From Lama guanicoe (taxonomy: Eukaryota): a stretch of DNA of 64,000 nt. The position numbers were made by a program, and so were the translations under genes. This document shows, one piece after another, positions 5,181 to 32,650 of this stretch (the stretch's first letter is position 1; every line of letters begins with the position of its first letter). The notes below the pieces were generated by a model. That model was not told the origin of the DNA. It worked only from the letters and a program-made list of their open reading frames with translations, and did no database searches. The DNA lies in NCBI GenBank assembly GCA_013239625.1, contig MU053559.1, positions 3,350,607 through 3,414,606 on the forward strand, in the 5' to 3' direction.

Positions 5181-7299
5181 AATATTTCTCATTTTGATGG
5201 AAAAGCAGGTGCTGCCGGTGGATGTCAGGGTGAGTTGAAGGTTAATATAGGCAATCCTTTTGTACTAAGAACTAATTGTTTTTTTTAATATTCCTGGAAC
5301 CCTGGGAATGATTGATAAAGTCATTTGAAAGCCCCAATCAAATCATGTCTTTTCATAAGAACCTGATGAAAAGCTGTTGAAGTTCACATTAAATGGTTTG
5401 CTGAGTCATTGTTGGAAAGTGGGGATGTCAGCAGATGGCTAATTTCCAGTGTGGGGTTTTGGGGGGTTTCTTGTTTTGTTTTTGCCTTTTCCCCCCACTT
5501 TAAACCCAACTGAACTGTTTGGACTTAACCGTTTGAAAAGCAACATGTATAGGTCTATCGGTTGACTTTAATGCTTACTAAAATAGTTGAATTCTTATAA
5601 TAGAGAGAAGATAAAGAGTGCTGTAACTTAAGTATTATTATCGTTTAAACATTTTGCCTGCTTTAGTCTATTTATTGCCCCTGATCCAATTAACGTCAAA
5701 CACACCATTCTTGGTCTTTGTTTGAAGTTTGTTTTTCGGGGGAGAGTGGGGGTTGTATTGCTTCCAGGCTTTATGGATAGCTCAGTCATCAGTTTAGGAT
5801 ATTTAAAGTGCCCTTCCTCCTTTCAAATAGCAGGGAATTATCGACGAACAAAATGAAACCTCTCCAAATTTAAAAAAAAAACAGTCTTGCCTTTCCAATT
5901 TGGATTATCTTAATTTGAAGATTGCTTCACAGCCTTTTCCACTTGTTCCATACGTGATAATTTCGCTGGAAGTTTGGCAGTTCGAGTCTTCTCTACTAGC
6001 TTAATGAAATACTAGGGTTTCCCACAAAATATTTATGATGCTTAATAATGCAGAGTCCACTGAATAATGAATAGTCACGTTCCCAATTATATGTAGATTC
6101 TTTTTAGCTAAGAATATAGATTCCTGAATTCTGAATAGCCTTCAGAATTGGTCTGTAAATGGTCTTTCAGACAAACAGCTTCCAAAATGATATTAGACAT
6201 ACACTCAAGTGATACTTGTTTGGGCAAAAGTCTGAATGGCTTCGAGTTAAAAGCAGGTTAAGACCTTTTTCCAAAATGAGTCTCTTCAAGTTTGAACATC
6301 TTCAGAAACACTGTGCTTTTCAGTTCCCCAGAGAATGTGATGGGTAAAAACAGAAAACCTACTGAGGCAAGATCACTGAAGCTATTGAGCACATAAACCC
6401 GGAGTGATAATGGAGCAAGCATCATTGTTACAAAGTAGCGCTGACGGTGCAGTTAGTTTCAGAGACATTGTAATTCACCCCCCTCCCCCGTCACCTTCTT
6501 ACCAGGTTATATATGGGTTTAAATAAACATTTTCATTCAAGTTCAATAAGTTCCCCAGACCAAGAGTTTGAAGACAAGAATGTACATCTTTGCATTTGTT
6601 CCTGGTACCCCCGTAAAATTCCTTCCAAGGGGACTTTCGAGCCCATTATGTGTCTGGTGGGTGGCACGGGAAGCCAAGGGTCAGCGCTGCTGCTCAGAAG
6701 CACCTGGAAACGGCTGAAAAATGTGGCTGATGAAAAACTCCACAGTGGCTCTGCAAGGAGAGAATTAATGACTGGCTAGAATCAGTAGGAGCCTTTACTT
6801 CTAAATACTCATTAGTTTAAAGCAGTGAGGCCTGATGTTATGCAAGTTATAGAGGGAAACGGGGACCGCCCCTTCCCATTGTCTATTTTGAACAGAATAT
6901 GCACATTTAACTCAATGGTGAATGGTTCAAACACATCAAACCAACAATTCATCCATCTCCCAGCTTCCTGAGCACTGCTTCGCTTCTGTGTAAAGCCAAC
7001 AATAGCGGAAATGCTTGTTATGACCCCACTGTAATATTAAAATCCAGAGGGACTGATGGCTGGGTGAAAAACACAAAATATATTCTCCTTTAGAAACTGT
7101 TCCACCAAAGTCGTCTCTCTGTGTTTTCCACTTTCCTACTTCGCCTAGAGGGGAACAGCTGCCGGAAATAGGAACTTGATAAAAATTACTTTTGCTGGCT
7201 TTTTTTCTCCCTTGCTACCCCTGTTCTCCATTCTTGCTGTGAAGCCACTCACTGAATACAGAACAGGAGATGACGAGTAATTTCAGACTGCCACAGACA

Positions 7300-19440: not shown

Positions 19441-19849
19441 CACCTCATACCTCTCAGAATGGCTGTCATCAAAAAGGACACAAATAACAAAATGTGGGTG
19501 AGGATGTGGAGAAAAGGGAACCCTTGTGCACTGTTGGTGGGAATGTAAATTGGCGCAGCCACTGTAGAAAACAATATGATGGTAGGTTTCTCAAAAAACT
19601 AAAAATAGAACTATTAGATAGCCTGGCAATTTCACTTCTGGGTATACATCAAAAACAAAACAAAACAAGACAAAACAAAACACCACTAATTCAAAAAAGA
19701 TACATGCACCCTAATGTTCATAACAGCATTATTTACAATAGCCAAAATATGGAAGCAACTTAAGTATCCACCAACAGGTGGTGAATGGATAAAGATGTGG
19801 TATATATAGACAATAGAATACTATTCAGCTATAAAATAGAAGGGAATTT
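19441..19849 (+). mobile_element. 5'-truncated L1, left part (host of the chimeric insertion)
   Basis: ORF2 C-terminal sequence ending TATTCAGCTATAAAATAGAAGGGAATTT; continues at ~27020. Confidence 0.85.
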
Positions 19850-20253
19850 GGGAGGTGGCGGCAGCGATAAAGGAAAAGGAGGAGATGGTGGCGGAGGAGG
19901 AACAACCCGGCCCCACCCACCAGGCCCCATGCTCACCTGCCTGTGCGCATGTCAGTGGCCTACCATAGGCCTCTGCACATGGCAGCGCTCTGGGTTGGAG
20001 GGAATAGCCTGCTGGGGCGCCAAGGGAAGATGGGGTGGCGGCCTTGGAAAGTGTTTGGACTGTGAGCCATGTAAGAACTCTGTTCTCAAGACCCATTATT
20101 TTAACATTTGGAAGAGACATGTCCAGAAGACACACACTAGACTGAAGGAGGAGTAGGGAATCTGAAGACTCCATATGATATCAGAGCTATTTTTCAGCAG
20201 CCTTCTAAGTTTCCTTTCTCAAAAAGTAGAGACTCATACCTTGGAGACAGGTG
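19850..20253 (+). pseudogene. NRIP1: Processed copy of NRIP1 non-coding 5' exons 1-3 (5' UTR only), fused to L1
   Basis: 20048-20253 closely matches the human NRIP1 exon 2+3 (circNRIP1) sequence as I recall it: GAAGTGTTTGGATTGTGAGC...CATTATTTTAACATTTGG...CCAGAAG|ATGCACACTTGACTGAAGGAGG...GAATCTGAAGACTCC...CTTGGAGACAGACG. It is preceded by GC-rich exon-1-like sequence ending GGCGGCCTTGG, with no introns. Confidence 0.85.
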
Positions 20254-20286
20254 ATTTTCAGGTTTAAAGTCTTTTAAAGGTAATTT

Positions 20287-23200
20287 GGATGACTGGATTA
20301 AGATGGCGGAGTAGAAGGACTTTGATTTCACATTCTCTTATGAACACAACAAAATTACAACTAACGGCTGAACAAGCATTGATAATAAAAAAAAAGACTG
20401 AAACCTACCAGAAAAAGATCTACATCTAAAGATATAATGAAGGAACCACAAGATAATGGAGGGAGGGGATGGTACACTTGTGATATAATCAAACCTCATA
20501 CCCCCCTGGGTGGACGACTGACAACCTGCAGAAAAAATACATTGCAGAGGTTCTACCCACAGGAGTGACAGCTCTGAGCCCCAAGTCAGGGTACCCAGCC
20601 TGGGGGTCTGTCATCAGGAAGAGGAGTCCCCAGAGCATCAGGCTTTGATGGCCAGTGGGGCTTAACTGTAGGAGCTCCACAGGACTGCAGGAAACAGAGA
20701 CATCAGTCTTAGAGGGTGCACACAAAATCTCATGCACACTTAGACCAAGGGCAAAAGCAGGAACTTCATAGAAACCTGGGACAGACCTACATGCTGATTT
20801 TGGAGGGTCTCCTGGGGAAGTGGGGTCCAGCTCTGGCTCACCCTGAGGACATAAAAGCTGATGGCAGATATAATGGCGAGTAATCATTTGCATGCACTCT
20901 CCTCAAGGCTGCCATCTTGCTTGAGTCATTAGCACCAAGACTTGACCCCACCCAACAGCCTGTAGGCTCCAGTGGGGGATGCCTCAGGCCAAACAACTAA
21001 CTGGGTGGGAATACAGCCCCACCATCAGCATACAGGCTGCCTAAAGACTTCCTGAGCCCACAGCTGCCTCTAGACACACCCCTGCCCACCAGAGGAGTAG
21101 GATCCAGCTCCACCCACCACTGGGCAGGCACCAACCCCTCTCACCAGGAAGCCCACACAAGCTTCTAGACCAGCCTACTCCACCAGGGGGCAGACACCAA
21201 AAGCAAGGTAAGTACAATCCCACAGCCTGTGAAACAAGTCCACAAATGCAGGCCGGACACTGGGAAGAGCTGGCCCCTGGTCCCTGGGTAATAAGAGGGT
21301 AGTGTTCTACTGGGATGCATAAGGATGTATCCAACAGAGGGCCACTTCTCCACTCCAAGATTGAGAAACATAACTAACCTCCCACATACATAAATATATC
21401 AAAAGAAATTTAGACAAAATGAGACAGCAGAAGAGTATGTTCCAAAGAAACAAGATAAAATCCCAGAAGAACTATGTGATGTAGAGATAGGCACTCTACC
21501 TGAGAAAGAGTTCAGTGTAATGATTATAAAGATGATCAGAGAACTTGAGGGGTTTATGGATGCACAGAGTAAGAAGTTAGAAAATATAAAGAGCCAAAGA
21601 CTTCTAACTCTTATTAAACAGAGATGAAGAATACAATAACTGAAAAAATTCTACAATATAAGGAACTAAGAGTAGACTAAATAAGGCAGAAGAATGGATC
21701 AGTGGGCTAGAAGACAGATTAGTGGAAATCACTACTGCAGAACAGAAAAAAGAAAAAAGAATGAAAAGAAATGCAGATAGTTTAAGAGAACTCTGGGACA
21801 ACATGAAGCGCACTAATATTCACATTATAGGGGTCCCAGAAGGAGAAGAGAGAAAGAGCCTGAGAAAATATGTGAAGAGATAATAGCTGAAAACTTCCCT
21901 AAATTGGGAAAGGAAATAGTCACTTAAGTCTAGGAAGCACAGTCTCATACAGGATTAACCAACCCCAAGAGGACCTAGACATATTATAATTAAAGTGACA
22001 AAAACTAAAGATAAAGAGATAATATTAAAAGCAACAAGGGAAAAGCAGCAAGTAACATACAAGGGAACTCCCATAAGACTATCAGCTGATTTTTCAGCAG
22101 AAACTCTGCAGGCCAGAAGGGAGTGGCAAGATATGTTTTGAGTGATGAAAGGGAAAAACTTACAACCAAGAATACTCTACCCAGCAAGGCTCTCATACAC
22201 ATTTCATGGAGAAATCAAAAGCTTTACAGATAAGAAAAAGCTAAAAGAATTCAGCATCACCAAATCAGCTTTACAACAAATGATAAAGGAACTTATCTAG
22301 GCAAAAAAGAAATGGCCACAACTATAAATAAGAAAACTATGAAATGGAAAAGCTTACTGGTAAAAGCAAACATAGAGTAATAGTAGGAAATTGTCCACAA
22401 ACAAACTAGGAAGAAGGTTAAGAGACAAAAGCAGCAGTAAAATCATCTGTGTCCACAATAACCATTTAAGGGATACACAAAAGAAATGTAAAGTATAATA
22501 TCAAAAACAGTAATTGTGAGGGGAAGAGAGTACAAATGCAAGGTATTTAAAATGGATTTGATAATTGACATCAGCAACCTACAGCAATTGTGTGTGTGTA
22601 TTTTGTACACACACATATATATATCTCCCAGAAGGAGAGAGAGAGACTGCTATACCAAAACCTCATGCTAACCACAAACCAAAAATCTATAATAGATACA
22701 CACACAAAAAGAAAGGAATGCAAAACGCACTAAAAATAGTCACCAGATAACAAAAGAAACAAAAAAGGAGAAGGGAAAAAAATCTACAAAAACTCAAAAA
22801 CAGTGAACAAAATGGCAATATGAAGATACATGTCAATAATTACCTTAAATGTAAACATACCTTAATTATAAACAGATTTAATGCTCCAAAAGATACATAT
22901 TGCCTGAATAGATACAAAAACAAGACCTATGTATTTGCTGCCTACAGGAGACTCACTTCAGATCTAGAGACACATACAGACTGAAAGTGAGAGGATGGAA
23001 AAAATTACTACATGCGAATGGAAATCAAAAGAAAGCTAGAGTAGCAATACTTCTATAGACAAAAATAGACTTTAAAATAAAGGCTCTTACAAGAGACAAA
23101 GAAGGGTACTACATAATGACTGAGGGATCAATCCAAGAAGATATAACAATTTTAAGTATATATGCACCCAACGTAGGAGCACCTCAATATATAAGGCAAA

Positions 23201-23547
23201 TGTTAACAGACATACAGGGAGAAAATGACACTAACACAATAATAATGAGGGAGTTTACCACTCCACTTACATCAAAGGAGAGATCAGACCAAAAAAATTA
23301 ATAAGGAAACACAGGCCTTTAACCAGGCCTTTAGACCAGATGGACATAACTGATATTTATAGAGCATCCCATCTAAAAGCAGCAGAATACACAATCTCTT
23401 CAAGAGCACATGAAGCATTCTCCAGAATAGATCACATGCTGGGCCACAAAACAAGCCTTGGTAAATTTAAGAAAATCGAAACAATATAAAGCATCTTTTC
23501 TAACCAGAACGCTATGAAATTAGAAATCAACTACAAGAAATAAAACT

Positions 23548-23592
<45 letters not shown>

Positions 23593-26500
23593 AAAACACA
23601 AGCACATGAAGGCCAAACAATATGCTACTAAACAACCAACAGATCACTGAAGAAATCAAGAAGAAATAAAAAATACCTAGAGAAAAAGCAAAATGAAACA
23701 TGACAATTCAAAACCTATGGGATGCAGCAAAAGCAATTCTAAGAGGGAAGTTTATAACTATACAAGCTTACATCAGGAAACAAGAAAAATCCAAATAAAT
23801 AATCTAACTATACATCTAAAGCAACTAGAGAAAAAAGAAACAAAACCTAAAGTTAGAAGAAATCAAAGCAACTAGAGAAAGAACAAACAAAACCCAACAT
23901 TAATATAAGAAATCATAAAGATCAGCAGAAAAATAAATGACATAGAGACTAAGAAAAAAAGAATAGAAAAGATCAATGAAAGTAAAAGCTGCTTCTTTGA
24001 AAAGATAAACAAAATTGATAAACCTTTAGCCAGACTCATCAAGAAAAAAAGGGGGGACAAAAATCAATAAAATCAGAAATGAAAAAGAATTTACAACTGA
24101 TACCACAGAAATATAAGAGATTATAAAAAGCTACTATAAGCAATATATGCAAATAAAACGGACAATCTAGAAGGAATGGACAAATTCTTAGAAAGGCACA
24201 ATTTCCCAAGACTTAACCAGGAAGAAATAGAAAATATGAACAGACCAATTAACAGTACTGGAATTGAATCAGTAATTTTAAAACTCCCAACAAAGAAAAG
24301 TCCAGGACCAGAGTGCTTCACAGCTGAAGTCTACCAAACATTTAGAAAAGAGTTAATGCATATCCTTCTGAAATTATTCCAAAAATTGCAAAAGAAAGAA
24401 GACTTCCAAACTCATTCTATGAGGCCACTATCACTCTGATACCAAAACCAGATTGATCACAGAAAAAGAAAATTACAGGCCAATATCACTTATGAACATA
24501 GATGCAAAAATTCTCCACAAGATACTAGCAAATTGAATCCAACTTGACTCCAACAATACATTAAAAGGATCACATACCATGATTAAGTGAGATTTATCCC
24601 AGGGATGCAAGGATTTTTCAATAGCTACAAATCAATCAGTGTGCTACACCACATTAACAAATTGAAGAATAAACACAGTATGGTCATCTTACTAGATGCA
24701 GAAGATGTTGATAAAATTCAACATCCATTTATGATAAAAACTCTCCAGAAAGGGGGCATAGAGGGAACATACCTCAACATAATAAAGACTACATATGACA
24801 AACCCACAGCTAACATCATACTCAATGGTGAAAAGCATTTCCTCTAAGATCAGGAACAAGACAAGGATGCCCACTCCTGCCACTTTTATTCAACACAGTT
24901 TTTGACCTCCTAGCCACTGCAATCAGAGAATAAAGAGAAATAGAGGGAATCCAAATCAGAAAAGAAGTAAAACTGTCACTGTTTGCAGATGACATGATAC
25001 TATACATAAAAAATCCTAAAGAGGCTACCAGAAAGCTACTAGAGCTCATCAATGCATTTGGTAAAGTTCCAGGATACAAAATTAATACACAAAAATCAGT
25101 TGCATTTCTATACACTAACAATGAAATTTCAGAAAAAAAATTAAGAAAATAATCCCATTTACCACTGCATCAAAAAGAATAAAATACCTAGGAATAAACC
25201 TACCTAAGGAGGCAAAGGACCCGTACTCCGGAACCTCTAAGATGCTAATGAAAGAAATTGAAAACAATACAAATAGATGAAAAGGTATACCATGTTCTTG
25301 GATTGGAAGAATCAATATTGTTAAAACGGCCATACTACCCAAGGCAATCTACAGATTCAATGCAATCCCTACCAAATTACAAACAGCATTTTTCACAATA
25401 TGAAACTAAACAAAATAAAACAATTTTTAATCTGTATGGAAACACAAAAGATCCCAAATAGACAAAACAATCTTGAGAGAGAAGAACAGAGCTAGAGGAA
25501 TCATATTCCCTGACTTCAGACTATACTACAAAGGTACAGTAATCAAAACAGTATGGTACTGGCACAAGAACCAACACACACTTCAATGGAACAGGATAGA
25601 AAGTCCAGAAATAAACCTACACACTTATGATCAATTAATTTATGACAAAGGAGACAAGAATATACAATGGAGAAAAGACAGTTTCTTCAATAAGTGGTGC
25701 TGGGAAAACTGGTCAGCTATTTATAAAAGAATTAAATTTAGAACATTCTCTAACACCATGTACAAAAATAAACTCAAAATTGATTAAAGACCTAAATGTA
25801 AGACCACATACTATAAAACTTTTAGAGGAATACATAGGCAACACATTCTTTGACTTAAATTGCAGCAATATTTTTTCTGATCTACTCCTAGAGTAATCAA
25901 AATAAAAACAAACAAATGAGGCCTTATTAAACTTAGAAGCATATGTATATCAAAGGAAACTATAAATAAAATGAAAAGACAACCTATGGAATGTGAGAAA
26001 ATATTTGCAAATTATTTGACAGAATGAGATTAATTTCCAAAATATATAAACAGCTCATACAGCTTAATATGTATTTTTAAAAAACCAATCAAAAAAAAGG
26101 GCAGAAGACCCAAATAGACATTTCTCCATAGAATACATACAGATGGCCAACAGGTACATGAAAAAATGCTCAATATCACTAATTATTAGAGATATGCAAA
26201 GCAAAATTGCAATGAGATATCACCTCATACCAGTAGGAATGGCCATTATTAAAAAGTCTACAAATAATAAATGCTGGAGAGGGTGTGGAGAAAAAGAAAC
26301 CCTCCTATACTGTTGGTGAGAATGTAAATTGGTACAGCCACTATGGAGGACAGTATGGAGGGTCCTTAAAAAATTAACAATAGTTACCATATGATCCAGC
26401 AATCCCACTCCTGGGCATATATCCACAAAAAAACTCTAACTCGAAAAGATACATGCACCCCAATGTTCATAGCACTATTTATAATAGCAAGACATGGAAG

Positions 26501-27019
26501 CAACCTAAATGTCCATCGACAGATGACTGGATAAAGATGTGGTGTATATATATACACACACAATGGTATACAATGGAATATTACTCAGCCATAGAAAACA
26601 ATGAAATAATGCCATTTGCAGCAACATGGATGGACCTAGAGATTATCATATTAAGTGAAATAAGTCAAAGACAAATATCATATGATAATACTTATACTTG
26701 GAACCTGAAAAAAATGATACAAATGAACTTATTGGAAATAGACTTGTACAGACAGAAAACAAATTATGGTTACAAAGGGGAGAAGGGTAGGGGGAGGAAT
26801 AAATTGGGATCTTGGGACTGACATATATACACTATTATATATAAAATTGATAAACAAGGACCTACTGTATGGCACAGGGAACTATGTTCAATAGCTTGTA
26901 ATAACATACTGGAAAACAATCTGAAAAAAAATATGTATGTATATGTATAACTGAATCACTTTGCTGTACATCTGAAACTAACATTGTAAATCAACTATAC
27001 GTCAATAGAAGTAAATTAA
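20287..27019 (+). mobile_element. Full-length inactivated L1 (copy A)
   Basis: AAGATGGCGG (YY1-type) start, ~1.1 kb 5' UTR, ORF1 from ATG ~21419 to ~22342, long spacer, ORF2 from ATG 22812 (FADD at ~24982), 3' UTR; many stops and frameshifts. Confidence 0.95.
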
Positions 27020-27447
27020 AAGAAAAAATGAAATTTTGTCATTTGCAACAACATGGATGGACTTGGAGGGTATTATGCTAAGTGAAGTAAGTCAGACAGA
27101 GAAAGAAAAATGCTATATGTATATCACTTATAAGTGGAATATAAAAAATACAACAAACTTGTGAATATAACAAAAAAATAAGCAGACTCACAGACCTAAA
27201 GAGCAAACTAGTGGTGACCAGTGGGGAGACAGAAGGAGAAAGCGGCAATATAGGAGTAGAGGATTAAGAGGTGCAAAATATTATGTATAAGATAATCTAC
27301 AAGCACAGGGAATGTAGCCAATATTTTATAATAACTCTAAATGGAGTATAAACTCTACATTTTAAATTGTGAATCAGTATATTGTACACCTGTATCATAT
27401 ATATAATATTGTACTATACTTCAATAATAAACATAAAAATAAAAATA
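27020..27447 (+). mobile_element. 5'-truncated L1, right part (3' UTR + A-rich tail)
   Basis: Resumes GAAATTTTGTCATTTGCAACAACATGG where 19849 stopped. Confidence 0.85.
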
Positions 27448-27719: not shown

Positions 27720-28745
27720 CCATCTTAGCCTGTTCCTCTAAGAGAAGATCCTAAGATTAAGGCTTGTGGACAGGTAATTTGTTTAGAAATGTAATTCCAG
27801 AAAGCAGAGTATGTGCAAAAAGGAAGTGAAACAGAGAAAAAGGGAAAGAGCCAATCTAAGTAAAAGCAGAATTGGCCATCACTGAAGATTGGTACTTAAG
27901 CCAACTGGAATCTTGTTTGAAGTGTTAAGAAATGAGTTTCAAATGGCGTTGTGTTGTCATTTTTATGGCTGCATAATATTCCGTTGCATAAATACACCAC
28001 ATCTTCTTTATCCAATCATTTGTTGATGGACATTTAGGCTGTTTCCATGTCTTGGCTACTGTAAATAGTGCTGCTTTGAACACTGGGGTGCAGGTGTCTT
28101 TTTGAAGTAGGGTTCCTTCTGAAACAGACTCATAGACATAGANNNNNNNNNNNNNNNNNNNNNNNNNNNNNNNNNNNNNNNNNNNNNNNNNNNNNNNNNN
28201 NNNNNNNNNNNNNNNNNNNNNNNNNNNNNNNNNNNNNNNNNNNNNNNNNNNNNNNNNNNNNNNNNNNNNNNNNNNNNCTTGTGGTAGGGAGAAAAAAAAT
28301 GTGACAATGAATATATGTATGTTCATGTGTAACTGAAAACTTGTGCTCTATGCTGGAATTTGACACAACATTGTAAAATGACTATAACTCAATAAAAAAT
28401 ATAAAAAAATGAGTTTCGGAACTGTCTACTCAAGGATCAGAGGGGAAATCATTTATCTACTGTTTCCTGTTCCCCATTGGTCAAGAGTGGCCCCGTGTGC
28501 ATTAAATTCCCTCACACTTTCTGGGTCTCCATGTGTGAATGCAGAGGAGGTTCCTACTGGTCAGAGAAGCCTCAAAGAAGGAAGAAAATATGTTTGACAT
28601 CAGCCAAGGAGAGACACAGTTTAACTGCACTTGTGCAAAGCCAGTCAAAGTCTGAATGCAACTGCTCACTCCAGCAGTAGCTGGAGTAAGAAGAGAGAGA
28701 CCAAGAGGCTTTTCGAATGGTACGGAGGGCTCGTCCAATACACAT
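27720..28745 (-). mobile_element. Old ERVL-type LTR (LTR16/33-like), interrupted by L1
   Basis: TCTTAGCCTGTTCCTCTAAGAGAAGATCCTAAGA resembles a reverse-complement ERVL LTR end. Confidence 0.4.
27941..28406 (+). mobile_element. Young L1 with 5' inversion (twin priming)
   Basis: 27941-28120 antisense ORF2 end, 28121-28406 sense 3' UTR + A tail, TSD AAATGAGTTTC (27930-27940 / 28407-28417); N gap 28143-28277. Confidence 0.9.
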
Positions 28746-30361: not shown

Positions 30362-32650
30362 ATAAAAACTCTCGCCAAAGTGGGTATAGAGGGAACATAT
30401 CTCAACATAATAAAAGCTATATATGACAAACCTACAGCCAGCATAGTACTCAATGGTGAAAAACTCAAAAGCTTCCCACTAAAATCTGGGACAAGACAAG
30501 GATGCCCACTATCACCACTCCAATTCAACATAGTCCTGGAAGTCCTAGCCACAGCAATCAGGCAAGAGAAAGAAATAAAAGGGATCCAAATTGGAAAAGA
30601 AGAGGTAAAAGTGTCATTATATGCTGACGACATGTTACTATATTTAGAAAACCCTAAAAGGTCCACACAAAAGCTACTAGAGCTGATTGAAGAATTCAGC
30701 AAGGTAGCAGGTTACAAAATTAACGTTCAAAAATCAGTTGCATTTCTGTACACTAACGATGAATCAACAGGAAAAGAAAGTAAAGAAACAATCCCCTTTA
30801 AAATAGCACCCAAAGTAATAAAATATCTGGGAATAAATCTAACCAAGGAGGTGAAAGAATTATACACAGAAAACTATAAACCATTGATGAAGGAAATTAA
30901 AGAAGACTTTAAAAAATGGAAAGATATTCCATGCTCTTGGATTGGAAGAATCAATATTGTTAAAATGGTCACACTGCCCAAGGCAATCTACAGATTTCAT
31001 GCAATCCCTATCCAATTACCCAGGACATATTTCACAGAACTAGAACAAATCATAATAAAATTTATATGGAACCATCAAAGACCTAGAATTGCTAAAGCAT
31101 TACTGAAGAGAAAGAAAGAGGCTGGAGGAATAACTCTCCCAGACTTCAGACAATACTATAGAGCTACAGTCATCAAGACAGCATGGTATTGGTACCAAAA
31201 CAGACATATAGACCAATGGAACAGAATAGAGAGCCCAGAAATGAACCCACAAACTTTTGGTCAACTCATCTTCGACAAAGGAGGCAAGAATATACAATGG
31301 AATAAAGACAGTCTCTTCAGCAAATGGTGTTGGGAAAACTGGACAGCAGCATGTAAAACAATGAAGCTAGAACACACCCTTACACCATATACAAAAATCA
31401 ACTCAAAATGGATCAAAGACTTAAACATAAGACAAGATACAATAAACCTCCTAGAGGAAAACATAGGCAAAACATTATCTGACATACATTTCAAAAATTT
31501 TCTCCTAGAAGAAATAAAAGCAAGAATAAACAAATGGGACCTAATGAAACTTACAAGCTTCTGCAGAGCAAAGGAAACCAGAAATAAAACAAGAAGAAAA
31601 CCTACGGAATGGGAGAAAATTTTTGCAAGTGAAACCGACAAAGGCTTGATCTCCAAAATATATAAGCAGCTCATACGACTCAATAAGAAAAAAATAAACA
31701 ACCCAATCCAAAAATGGGCAGAAGACCTAAACAAGCAATTCTCCAAGGAAGACATACAAATGATCAAAAAGCACATGAAAAAATGTTCAATATCACTAAT
31801 TATCAGAGAAATGCAAATCAAAACTACAATGAGGTATCACCTCACACCAGTCAGAATGGCCGTCATTCAAAAATCCAAAAATGACAAATGCTGGAGAGGC
31901 TGTGGAGAAAGGGGAACCCTCCTACACTGCTGGTGGGAATGCAGTTTGGTGCAGCCACTATGGAAAACAGTGTGGAGATTCCTCAAAAGACTAGGAATAG
32001 ACTTACCATATGACCCAGGAATCCCACTCCTGGGCATATATCCAGAAGGAACTCTACTTCAAAAAGACACCTGCACCCCAATGTTCATAGCAGCACTATT
32101 TACAATAGCCAAGACATGGAAACANNNNNNNNNNNNNNNNNNNNNNNNNNNNNNNNNNNNNGTGGTATATTTATACAATGGAATACTACTCAGCCATAAA
32201 AACCGACAACATAATGCCATTTGCAGCAACATGGATGCTCCTGGAGAATGTCATTCTAAGTGAAGTAAGCCAGAAAGAGAAAGAAAAATACCATATGAGA
32301 GCGCTCATATGTGGAATCTAAAAAACAAAAACAAAAACAAACAAACAAAAACAAAGCGTAAATACAGGACAGAAATAGACTCATAGACAGAGAATACAGA
32401 CTTGTGGTTGCCAGGGGGGTGGAGGGTGGGAAGGGATAGACTGGGATTTCAGAATTGTAGAACAGATAAACAAGATTACACTGTATAGCACAGGGAAATA
32501 TACACAAAATGTTATGATAACTCACAGAGGAAAAAATGTGACAATGAGTGTGTAAATGTCCATGAATGACTGAAAAATTGTGCTGAACACTGTAATTTGA
32601 CACAACATTGTAAAATGATTATAAATCAATAAAAAATGTTAAAAAAACAA
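30362..32650 (+). mobile_element. Young 5'-truncated L1 with uninterrupted ORF2 3' half
   Basis: Perfect 17-bp TSD AAAACTACAATGTATGA (30345-30361 / 32651-32667); A-rich tail. Confidence 0.97.
30380..32321 (+). CDS. L1 ORF2p fragment (partial RT with YADD, C-terminal Cys-rich domain); no native start
   Basis: [19 protein letters not shown] and [18 protein letters not shown] motifs; after the N gap the ORF2 frame reads [13 protein letters not shown]...ALICGI to TAA at 32319-32321. Confidence 0.85.

Follow-up and report, generated by a model that had tools for sequence, protein, structure and literature searches.

In a 64,000-nucleotide stretch of the guanaco (Lama guanicoe) genome, hereafter the window (C1178:3350607-3414606 of a 2.05-Gb assembly, in which the genome-wide searches were made), an older L1 received a 7.17-kb chimeric cDNA through one L1 retrotransposition event. 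This cDNA occupies positions 19850-27019 of the window and consists of spliced sequence of the gene NRIP1 followed by a full-length L1. Its RNA template started in the CpG-island promoter region of NRIP1 and had exons 1, 2 and 3 joined at the splice sites of the gene. In place of the coding exon, exon 3 was followed by intron 3 sequence, spliced in at a cryptic acceptor 26 kb into that intron. From this point the template continued unbroken through 34 nt of the intron, entered the L1 at its first base and ended where the L1 itself ends on the 3′ side. Such an RNA probably arose when transcription from the NRIP1 promoter passed through an L1 allele that stood in sense orientation in intron 3 and has since been lost, the spliced chimera being subsequently retrotransposed.

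The first 438 bp of the insert (19850-20287), here called the leader, correspond to four colinear, same-strand pieces of contig C4389. A genome-wide search with 19850-20290 returned, besides the query itself, only two matches, both on the plus strand of that contig: C4389:20489008-20489135 (88%, E = 1.5e-37) and C4389:20466960-20467020 (89%, E = 9e-13). When 200 kb of C4389 were then searched sensitively with the leader, two further colinear pieces were obtained, pairing 19844-20042 with C4389:20449296-20449487 (68.5% of 200 positions, E = 3e-14) and 20253-20287 with C4389:20515088-20515122 (88.6% of 35 positions, E = 1.3e-6). Downstream of the pieces and on the same strand, the Pfam family NRIP1_repr_1 matches C4389:20527426-20528337 (E = 1e-143) within a 1162-codon open frame, and the ATG of the NRIP1 coding exon lies at C4389:20527348. 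The four pieces sit 78, 60, 38 and 12 kb upstream of this coding exon, with gene order kept, and therefore belong to the NRIP1 gene.

All four are copied on the plus strand of the window. The copy of exon 1 (19850-20047; C4389:20449296-20449487) starts within the CpG-island promoter region and ends at the exon 1 donor. It is followed by copies of noncoding exon 2 (20048-20129; C4389:20466949-20467020, 89%) and noncoding exon 3 (20130-20253; C4389:20489011-20489137, 88%) and by a piece of intron 3 (20254-20287; C4389:20515089-20515122, 30/34 identical, ungapped). Copy and gene also differ in length: the exon 1 copy has 14 extra bases at about 19905-19918 and lacks 56 bases of the gene after about 20033, near its end, and the exon 2 copy has 10 extra bases at about 20059-20068. 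No NRIP1 coding-exon sequence is present in the insert, the search with 19850-20290 having found only the insert itself and two exons of the gene. A processed pseudogene of NRIP1 is ruled out, as the 3′ end and poly(A) of a mature mRNA are missing along with the coding exon. An earlier note, made from the letters of the window alone, had assigned 20048-20253 to NRIP1 exons 2 and 3, had taken the stretch before 20048 for the end of exon 1 and had reported the coding exon to be absent. The matches on C4389 bear out each of these claims, and where it had expected three colinear NRIP1 matches separated by introns, the searches led to four colinear pieces with the introns removed.

Every internal border of the leader is a canonical splice site in NRIP1, and the copy is joined exactly there. 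Exon 1 ends in the gene at C4389:20449547, where the border reads GGCCTCGG/GTGAGT; the end of the exon 1 copy, GGCGGCCTTGG, corresponds to GGCGGCCTCGG/GTGAGT in the gene. Exon 2 has TTTTCAG/ in front and /GTA behind, exon 3 has CTTAAG/ in front and /GTGAGA behind, and the fourth piece starts at C4389:20515089 immediately after the cryptic acceptor, a strong one, GGTTTTTAG/. The junctions that had been placed near 20048 and 20130 are exact, with AG and GT at the borders in the gene. Missing from the copy are introns of 17.4 and 22.0 kb, plus 26 kb of intron 3. By a crude test that counts pyrimidines over the 20 upstream nt and asks for YAG with the last 15 nt free of AG, the cryptic acceptor is among the best 78 of the 2570 AGs in NRIP1 intron 3. 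An alternative end of exon 1, GCGCCTTCG, located 56 nt earlier in the gene, can be aligned but has no GT behind it; we kept the alignment to the canonical donor and therefore a gap of 56 nt in the copy.

What the earlier note had listed as a linker is the 34-bp piece of intron 3; its layout of a GC-rich part, a unique part, this linker and an L1 otherwise holds. At ≤3 mismatches the 34-mer is unique in the 2.05-Gb genome, whether searched in the form found in the copy or in that of the gene, and the surroundings of the piece are without similarity to L1, which argues against its being part of a repeat. Nor is it the start of the NRIP1 coding exon, exon 4. The ATGACT at 20289-20294, which resembles the start codon region of the gene and might suggest so, is part of an L1 terminus common to other copies, and the linker matches intron 3 and not exon 4. 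Aligned as a second copy of the old-L1 target, the linker shows only a faint resemblance, 21 identities with a 4-nt gap, as against 30/34 without a gap to the gene, and this reading too was rejected. The earlier note had exons 1-2-3 spliced onto the L1. The splicing of the three exons stands, but the join is made to the cryptic acceptor 34 bp upstream rather than to the L1 itself.

The insert interrupts an older L1 whose left part (19500-19849, plus strand), from the C-terminal region of the second open reading frame (ORF2), aligns to the inserted L1 up to 19849 and reaches further left than the examined span. In its right part (27020-27300, plus strand), which runs past the examined span, the ORF2 C-terminal alignment picks up at 27020. 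Aligned to the inserted L1, the two flanks form one continuous ORF2 C-terminal stretch. The 17 bp on each side of the insert, AAAATAGAAGGGAATTT at 19833-19849 and AAGAAAAAATGAAATTT at 27020-27036 (both plus strand), cover identical positions of L1 ORF2, and the target was therefore duplicated. This target-site duplication of ~17 bp is decayed, with 12/17 positions matching, by our count, between 19833-19849 and 27020-27036. Together with the AT in front of its 5′ copy it gives an endonuclease-type target, AT/AAAA, at 19831-19836, and an A-rich tail, short and degenerate, is found at about 27004-27019. It is the sole duplication and it encloses the composite, its left copy directly preceding exon 1 and its right copy directly following the tail of the L1. 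Thus, 19850-27019 is a single insert. The flank alignment and the 17-bp duplication confirm two statements made from the letters alone, namely that an older L1 is split at 19849/~27020 with a degenerate direct repeat and that the chimera, NRIP1 part and L1 together, was retrotransposed as one unit. A short (CAAAA)n-like microsatellite is located at 19640-19690 in the older L1, just upstream of the ORF2 C-terminal region.

The inserted L1 (20288-27019, plus strand, 6.7 kb) is full length in extent, with its 5′ untranslated region beginning at 20288, and is decayed. In a search with 20256-20900, the best 40 of 2066 candidate copies have 73-79% identity, and most of them start at window position 20300. 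Four of ten 5′ ends compared from among these copies have GATTACTGGATT before AAGATGG, where the window has GATGACTGGATT (12 bases), and their flanks are unrelated. Because this 12-base terminus is shared behind unrelated flanks, the L1 in the window starts at the terminus of its family, at 20288. That base directly follows the last base of the intron piece, with neither filler nor microhomology at 20287/20288. Domains of ORF1 (Pfam Tnp_22_trimer, Transposase_22 and Tnp_22_dsRBD) lie at about 21660-22300, a reverse-transcriptase fragment (Pfam RVT_1) at 24934-25149 and the ORF2 C-terminus at about 26384-26821, all on the plus strand. The Pfam domains appear as fragments spread over three frames; no endonuclease domain was reported by Pfam in the L1, and two of the three read-through frames gave nothing. 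On the strand of the L1, no stop-to-stop frame exceeds 145 aa, the length of the longest. The inserted L1 is dead, with neither ORF1 nor ORF2 intact, so the L1 that had earlier been described as complete is so in length, including its own 5′ end, but not in coding capacity. At 23549-23597, in the naturally A-rich coding part of ORF2, a stretch of some 48 A containing one G looks like a microsatellite expansion that took place after insertion.

The NRIP1 part and the L1 show decay of the same order. Over exons 2 and 3 plus the intron piece, 204/228 non-CpG sites match the gene (89.5%, or about 10.5% divergence), and the intron piece, at 30/34, has diverged as much as the exons, so that both arrived together. 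No poly(A) lies between the NRIP1 part and the L1. One duplication, the lack of poly(A) between the parts and equal decay thus indicate one retrotransposed chimeric RNA. At mammalian neutral rates, the divergence suggests that the copy is old, on the order of tens of millions of years. Exon 1 of the gene is a CpG island (GC 0.84, CpG observed/expected 1.10); its copy is not (GC 0.65, CpG observed/expected 0.40). The gene exon contains 46 CpGs and the copy 8, and C>T or G>A changes account for 18/28 differences at CpG sites. Given this depletion, the protection from methylation that the island enjoyed was lost; the exon 1 copy would have been methylated after insertion and then decayed. The copy thereby shows the fate of a CpG-island fragment moved out of its context. 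Sibling chimeras, for which the earlier note had proposed a search, were not found with either the 441-bp leader or the linker among the best candidates, the only ones scored, and weak copies could escape such a search.

In the reading we favour, a sense full-length L1 allele would once have been present at C4389:20515122/3, at the site TTTT/AAAA and with the 12-bp duplication AAAAGTAATTTG, and the 34 nt would have adjoined that L1 in the DNA. Transcription from the NRIP1 promoter would have read through into the element, and the cryptic acceptor and the L1 polyadenylation signal would together have formed an alternative last exon, giving a spliced NRIP1-L1 RNA. L1 proteins would have copied this RNA back into the genome, that is, a spliced 5′ transduction. 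The source allele may never have been fixed, or may have been lost later, leaving the empty site that the gene shows today. That site now reads TCTTTT/AAAAGTAATTTG/ATCAC, with no L1. A perfect TT/AAAA precedes the junction by 12 bp, and an L1 inserted there with a 12-bp duplication would begin exactly at the L1 start of the chimera; across 80 kb of NRIP1 introns, 2096 of 79520 positions (2.6%) have such a site placed so as to give a 7-20-bp duplication. This endonuclease-site geometry and the 34-bp footprint lead us to infer the source L1, which is itself not seen. The earlier note had spoken of a fossil of the NRIP1 promoter driving a source L1, and the mapping of the leader, the splice sites and the single duplication support that description.

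Several points weigh against this reading. The proposed source site holds no L1 in the present assembly, so that the source allele must, on this reading, have been lost, and contigs of a ~2%-diverged relative also cross the site without an insert. The same-family, full-length sense L1 that the earlier note had suggested looking for in NRIP1 intron 3 is not there in the present assembly, where only short L1 3′ fragments ~70% identical were found. The endonuclease-site argument is circumstantial, with a likelihood ratio that we estimate at about 10. If the cryptic acceptor were used without any L1, it would supply an NRIP1 RNA carrying the 34-nt piece for an event in trans. Finally, that transcription began where the copy begins, at 19850, is an assumption.

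The contigs of the relative come from Logan (4 runs, 3 studies), their RNA or DNA nature being partly uncertain, and they also cross the cryptic-acceptor site unspliced, with no joints or loose ends. This comparison covered local positions 4200-6200 of C4389:20510001-20520000. Contigs from runs labelled organism A have ~2% differences to the assembly and 9-bp insertions after local position 5259 and near 5666-5670; they therefore derive from a close relative and not from the assembled species. Runs of organism B contain 90-94% of the words of the same region. Closer to the coding exon, ~3 kb upstream of it, two adjacent sense L1 3′-end fragments, about 70-72% identical to the L1 of the window, are located at C4389:20523563-20524106; they were considered as the source and set aside as older, unrelated insertions.

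A source site that is empty both in the assembly and in the contigs of the relative would also fit the joining in trans of two separate RNAs, with no L1 ever present in NRIP1, an origin that we regard as unlikely. In one version, reverse transcriptase at the 5′ end of the L1 RNA would have switched template onto a fragment of NRIP1 RNA made up of exons 1-2-3 and an alternative exon or partly spliced intron, ending 34 nt past the cryptic acceptor. In the other, the two RNAs would have been ligated before reverse transcription; our assessment applies to the two versions jointly. Template-switch chimeras are a known class, and a jump at the extreme 5′ end of the L1 RNA would likewise yield a complete L1. 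Ligation requires an uncapped L1 5′ end, which counts against the second version. Either version requires that the NRIP1 RNA had its 3′ end at an arbitrary intronic base that lies exactly 12 bp past a perfect TT/AAAA, a coincidence expected by chance at 2.6% of positions, and the junction has neither the filler nor the microhomology that might mark such a join. A transcript using the cryptic acceptor was not seen in the contigs of the relative, which cannot exclude one. RNA joining does draw support from human data, in that 15/17 human genes with exon-L1 chimeras lack an intronic L1 and RNA recombination is favoured there, according to the main text of Law and Burns (doi 10.1101/2025.02.02.635956).

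Trans-splicing of NRIP1 pre-mRNA to an L1 transcript from elsewhere, the mechanism proposed for most human cases, is very improbable here. The chimera does have sense first exons and a long following intron (38 kb), features that Law and Burns tie to trans-splicing in their main text (doi 10.1101/2025.02.02.635956). Trans-splicing is nevertheless contradicted. The acceptor paired with the exon 3 donor belongs to intron 3 of NRIP1 itself, whereas a trans-spliced exon would end directly against the L1 or against an acceptor within it, and the junction with the L1 at 20287/20288 is no splice site, the intron piece ending ...AATTTG and the L1 starting at its normal terminus. Moreover, with no second genomic match at ≤3 mismatches, the 34 nt are not the flank of another L1 in this assembly. 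Least probable of all is an origin in two unconnected steps, with the L1 inserting in one and a fragment of NRIP1 cDNA being inserted or rearranged to lie exactly at the L1 5′ end in the other, for which nothing specific speaks although nested insertions are common in the window: the only duplication surrounds the composite, the NRIP1 part has no 3′ end, poly(A) or flanking repeats of its own, it is as decayed as the L1, and to our knowledge a 5′-only cDNA cannot arise by target-primed reverse transcription alone.

Outside the insert, runs of N at 28143-28277 and 32125-32161 represent assembly gaps or withheld stretches. The first of these falls in a minus-strand L1 ORF2 C-terminal fragment (open reading frame 27925-28326, minus strand).

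The chimera has no evident present function, as the L1 is dead and the leader decayed. Its interest lies in being a probable case, clean, resolved to the base and from outside the primates, in which the CpG-island promoter of a host gene drove an L1 within an intron, in cells contributing to the germline, with three exons carried along. The retained 34-bp piece shows cis splicing within the pre-mRNA of NRIP1 and points to where a source L1, now gone, would have stood; with no source L1 in NRIP1, it argues for the ancestral-variant explanation in this instance. We put forward only tentatively, as a possibility more doubtful than not, a fuller proposal: the piece marks where an L1 allele, never fixed and since vanished, took over the NRIP1 promoter, NRIP1 transcripts being diverted to end in a last exon terminated by L1. 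Were this true, an origin in cis from intronic L1 alleles of short life could account for most orphan exon-L1 chimeras, whose parent genes carry no L1 today, such as the 15/17 human cases now ascribed to trans-splicing. Such alleles may have been removed for breaking the gene, and chimeras that keep a piece of flank would allow lost insertion sites to be mapped at base level.

Composite insertions of other kinds resemble this one in part. In unspliced L1 5′ transduction, an upstream promoter starts the L1 RNA, and extra 5′ sequence inside the duplication marks the source locus. The NRIP1 chimera shares the upstream promoter and the extra 5′ sequence within the duplication, but here 65 kb of NRIP1 were cut by splicing to 438 bp, of which only the last 34 bp would be immediate flank. 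In U6-L1 template-switch retrogenes, the usual partner is a small RNA copied in full, whose 3′ end meets a 5′-truncated L1. They too are two-part insertions with a copy of a cellular RNA on the 5′ side, L1 on the 3′ side and one duplication around both. The insert in the window does not belong to this type, as its NRIP1 part stops within an intron, without the coding exon, and the 5′ end of its L1 is complete.

Exons have also been captured by SVA elements, with MAST2 exon 1 in SVA_F1 in human and STK40 exon 1 in pt_SVA_D6 in chimpanzee (PMC6139936). As in the NRIP1 chimera, a GC-rich host first exon was gained at the 5′ side by splicing and was mobilised by the L1 machinery. The elements in those cases are non-autonomous SVAs with the acceptor inside the element, they form subfamilies of roughly 90 copies, and the exon serves as promoter (PMC6139936). 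In contrast, the NRIP1 chimera involves an autonomous L1, an acceptor in a host intron and three captured exons, and no offspring were found among the candidates scored.

The closest counterparts are human. Law and Burns describe, in the main text of their 2025 study (doi 10.1101/2025.02.02.635956), 17 L1s of the human genome whose 5′ side carries spliced first exons of genes, mostly near full length and in sense orientation. NRIP1 occurs 0 times in that main text, the supplementary tables lying outside this check, and we found no paper linking NRIP1 with an L1 chimera, the NRIP1/LINE-1 literature that we did find being unrelated by title and abstract. Compared with the cases in that main text, ours concerns another mammal, another gene and another L1 family, and its L1 has a complete 5′ end rather than being spliced and promoter-less. 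In the MAP3K13 or FHIT cases, as given there, the exon abuts the L1 directly, whereas the NRIP1 chimera keeps a footprint of its putative source site. What it shares with the human chimeras as described is spliced sense first exons before a near-full-length L1, one duplication around the whole and a long following intron. In RAP1GDS1-L1PA2, the exons are spliced to a cryptic acceptor that lies 15 bp in front of an L1 in the intron, and this source L1 is still present (doi 10.1101/2025.02.02.635956, main text). The putative source L1 is gone from NRIP1, by comparison, and the NRIP1-L1 chimera is a single copy, no second insertion from the same source having been found among the best candidates scored. 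In both, however, a short piece of intron links exon and L1, 34 bp here and 15 bp there. The NRIP1-L1 chimera is thus a further case of the type already described in humans with RAP1GDS1-L1PA2, and its retained flank bears on whether the human exon-L1 chimeras need trans-splicing.

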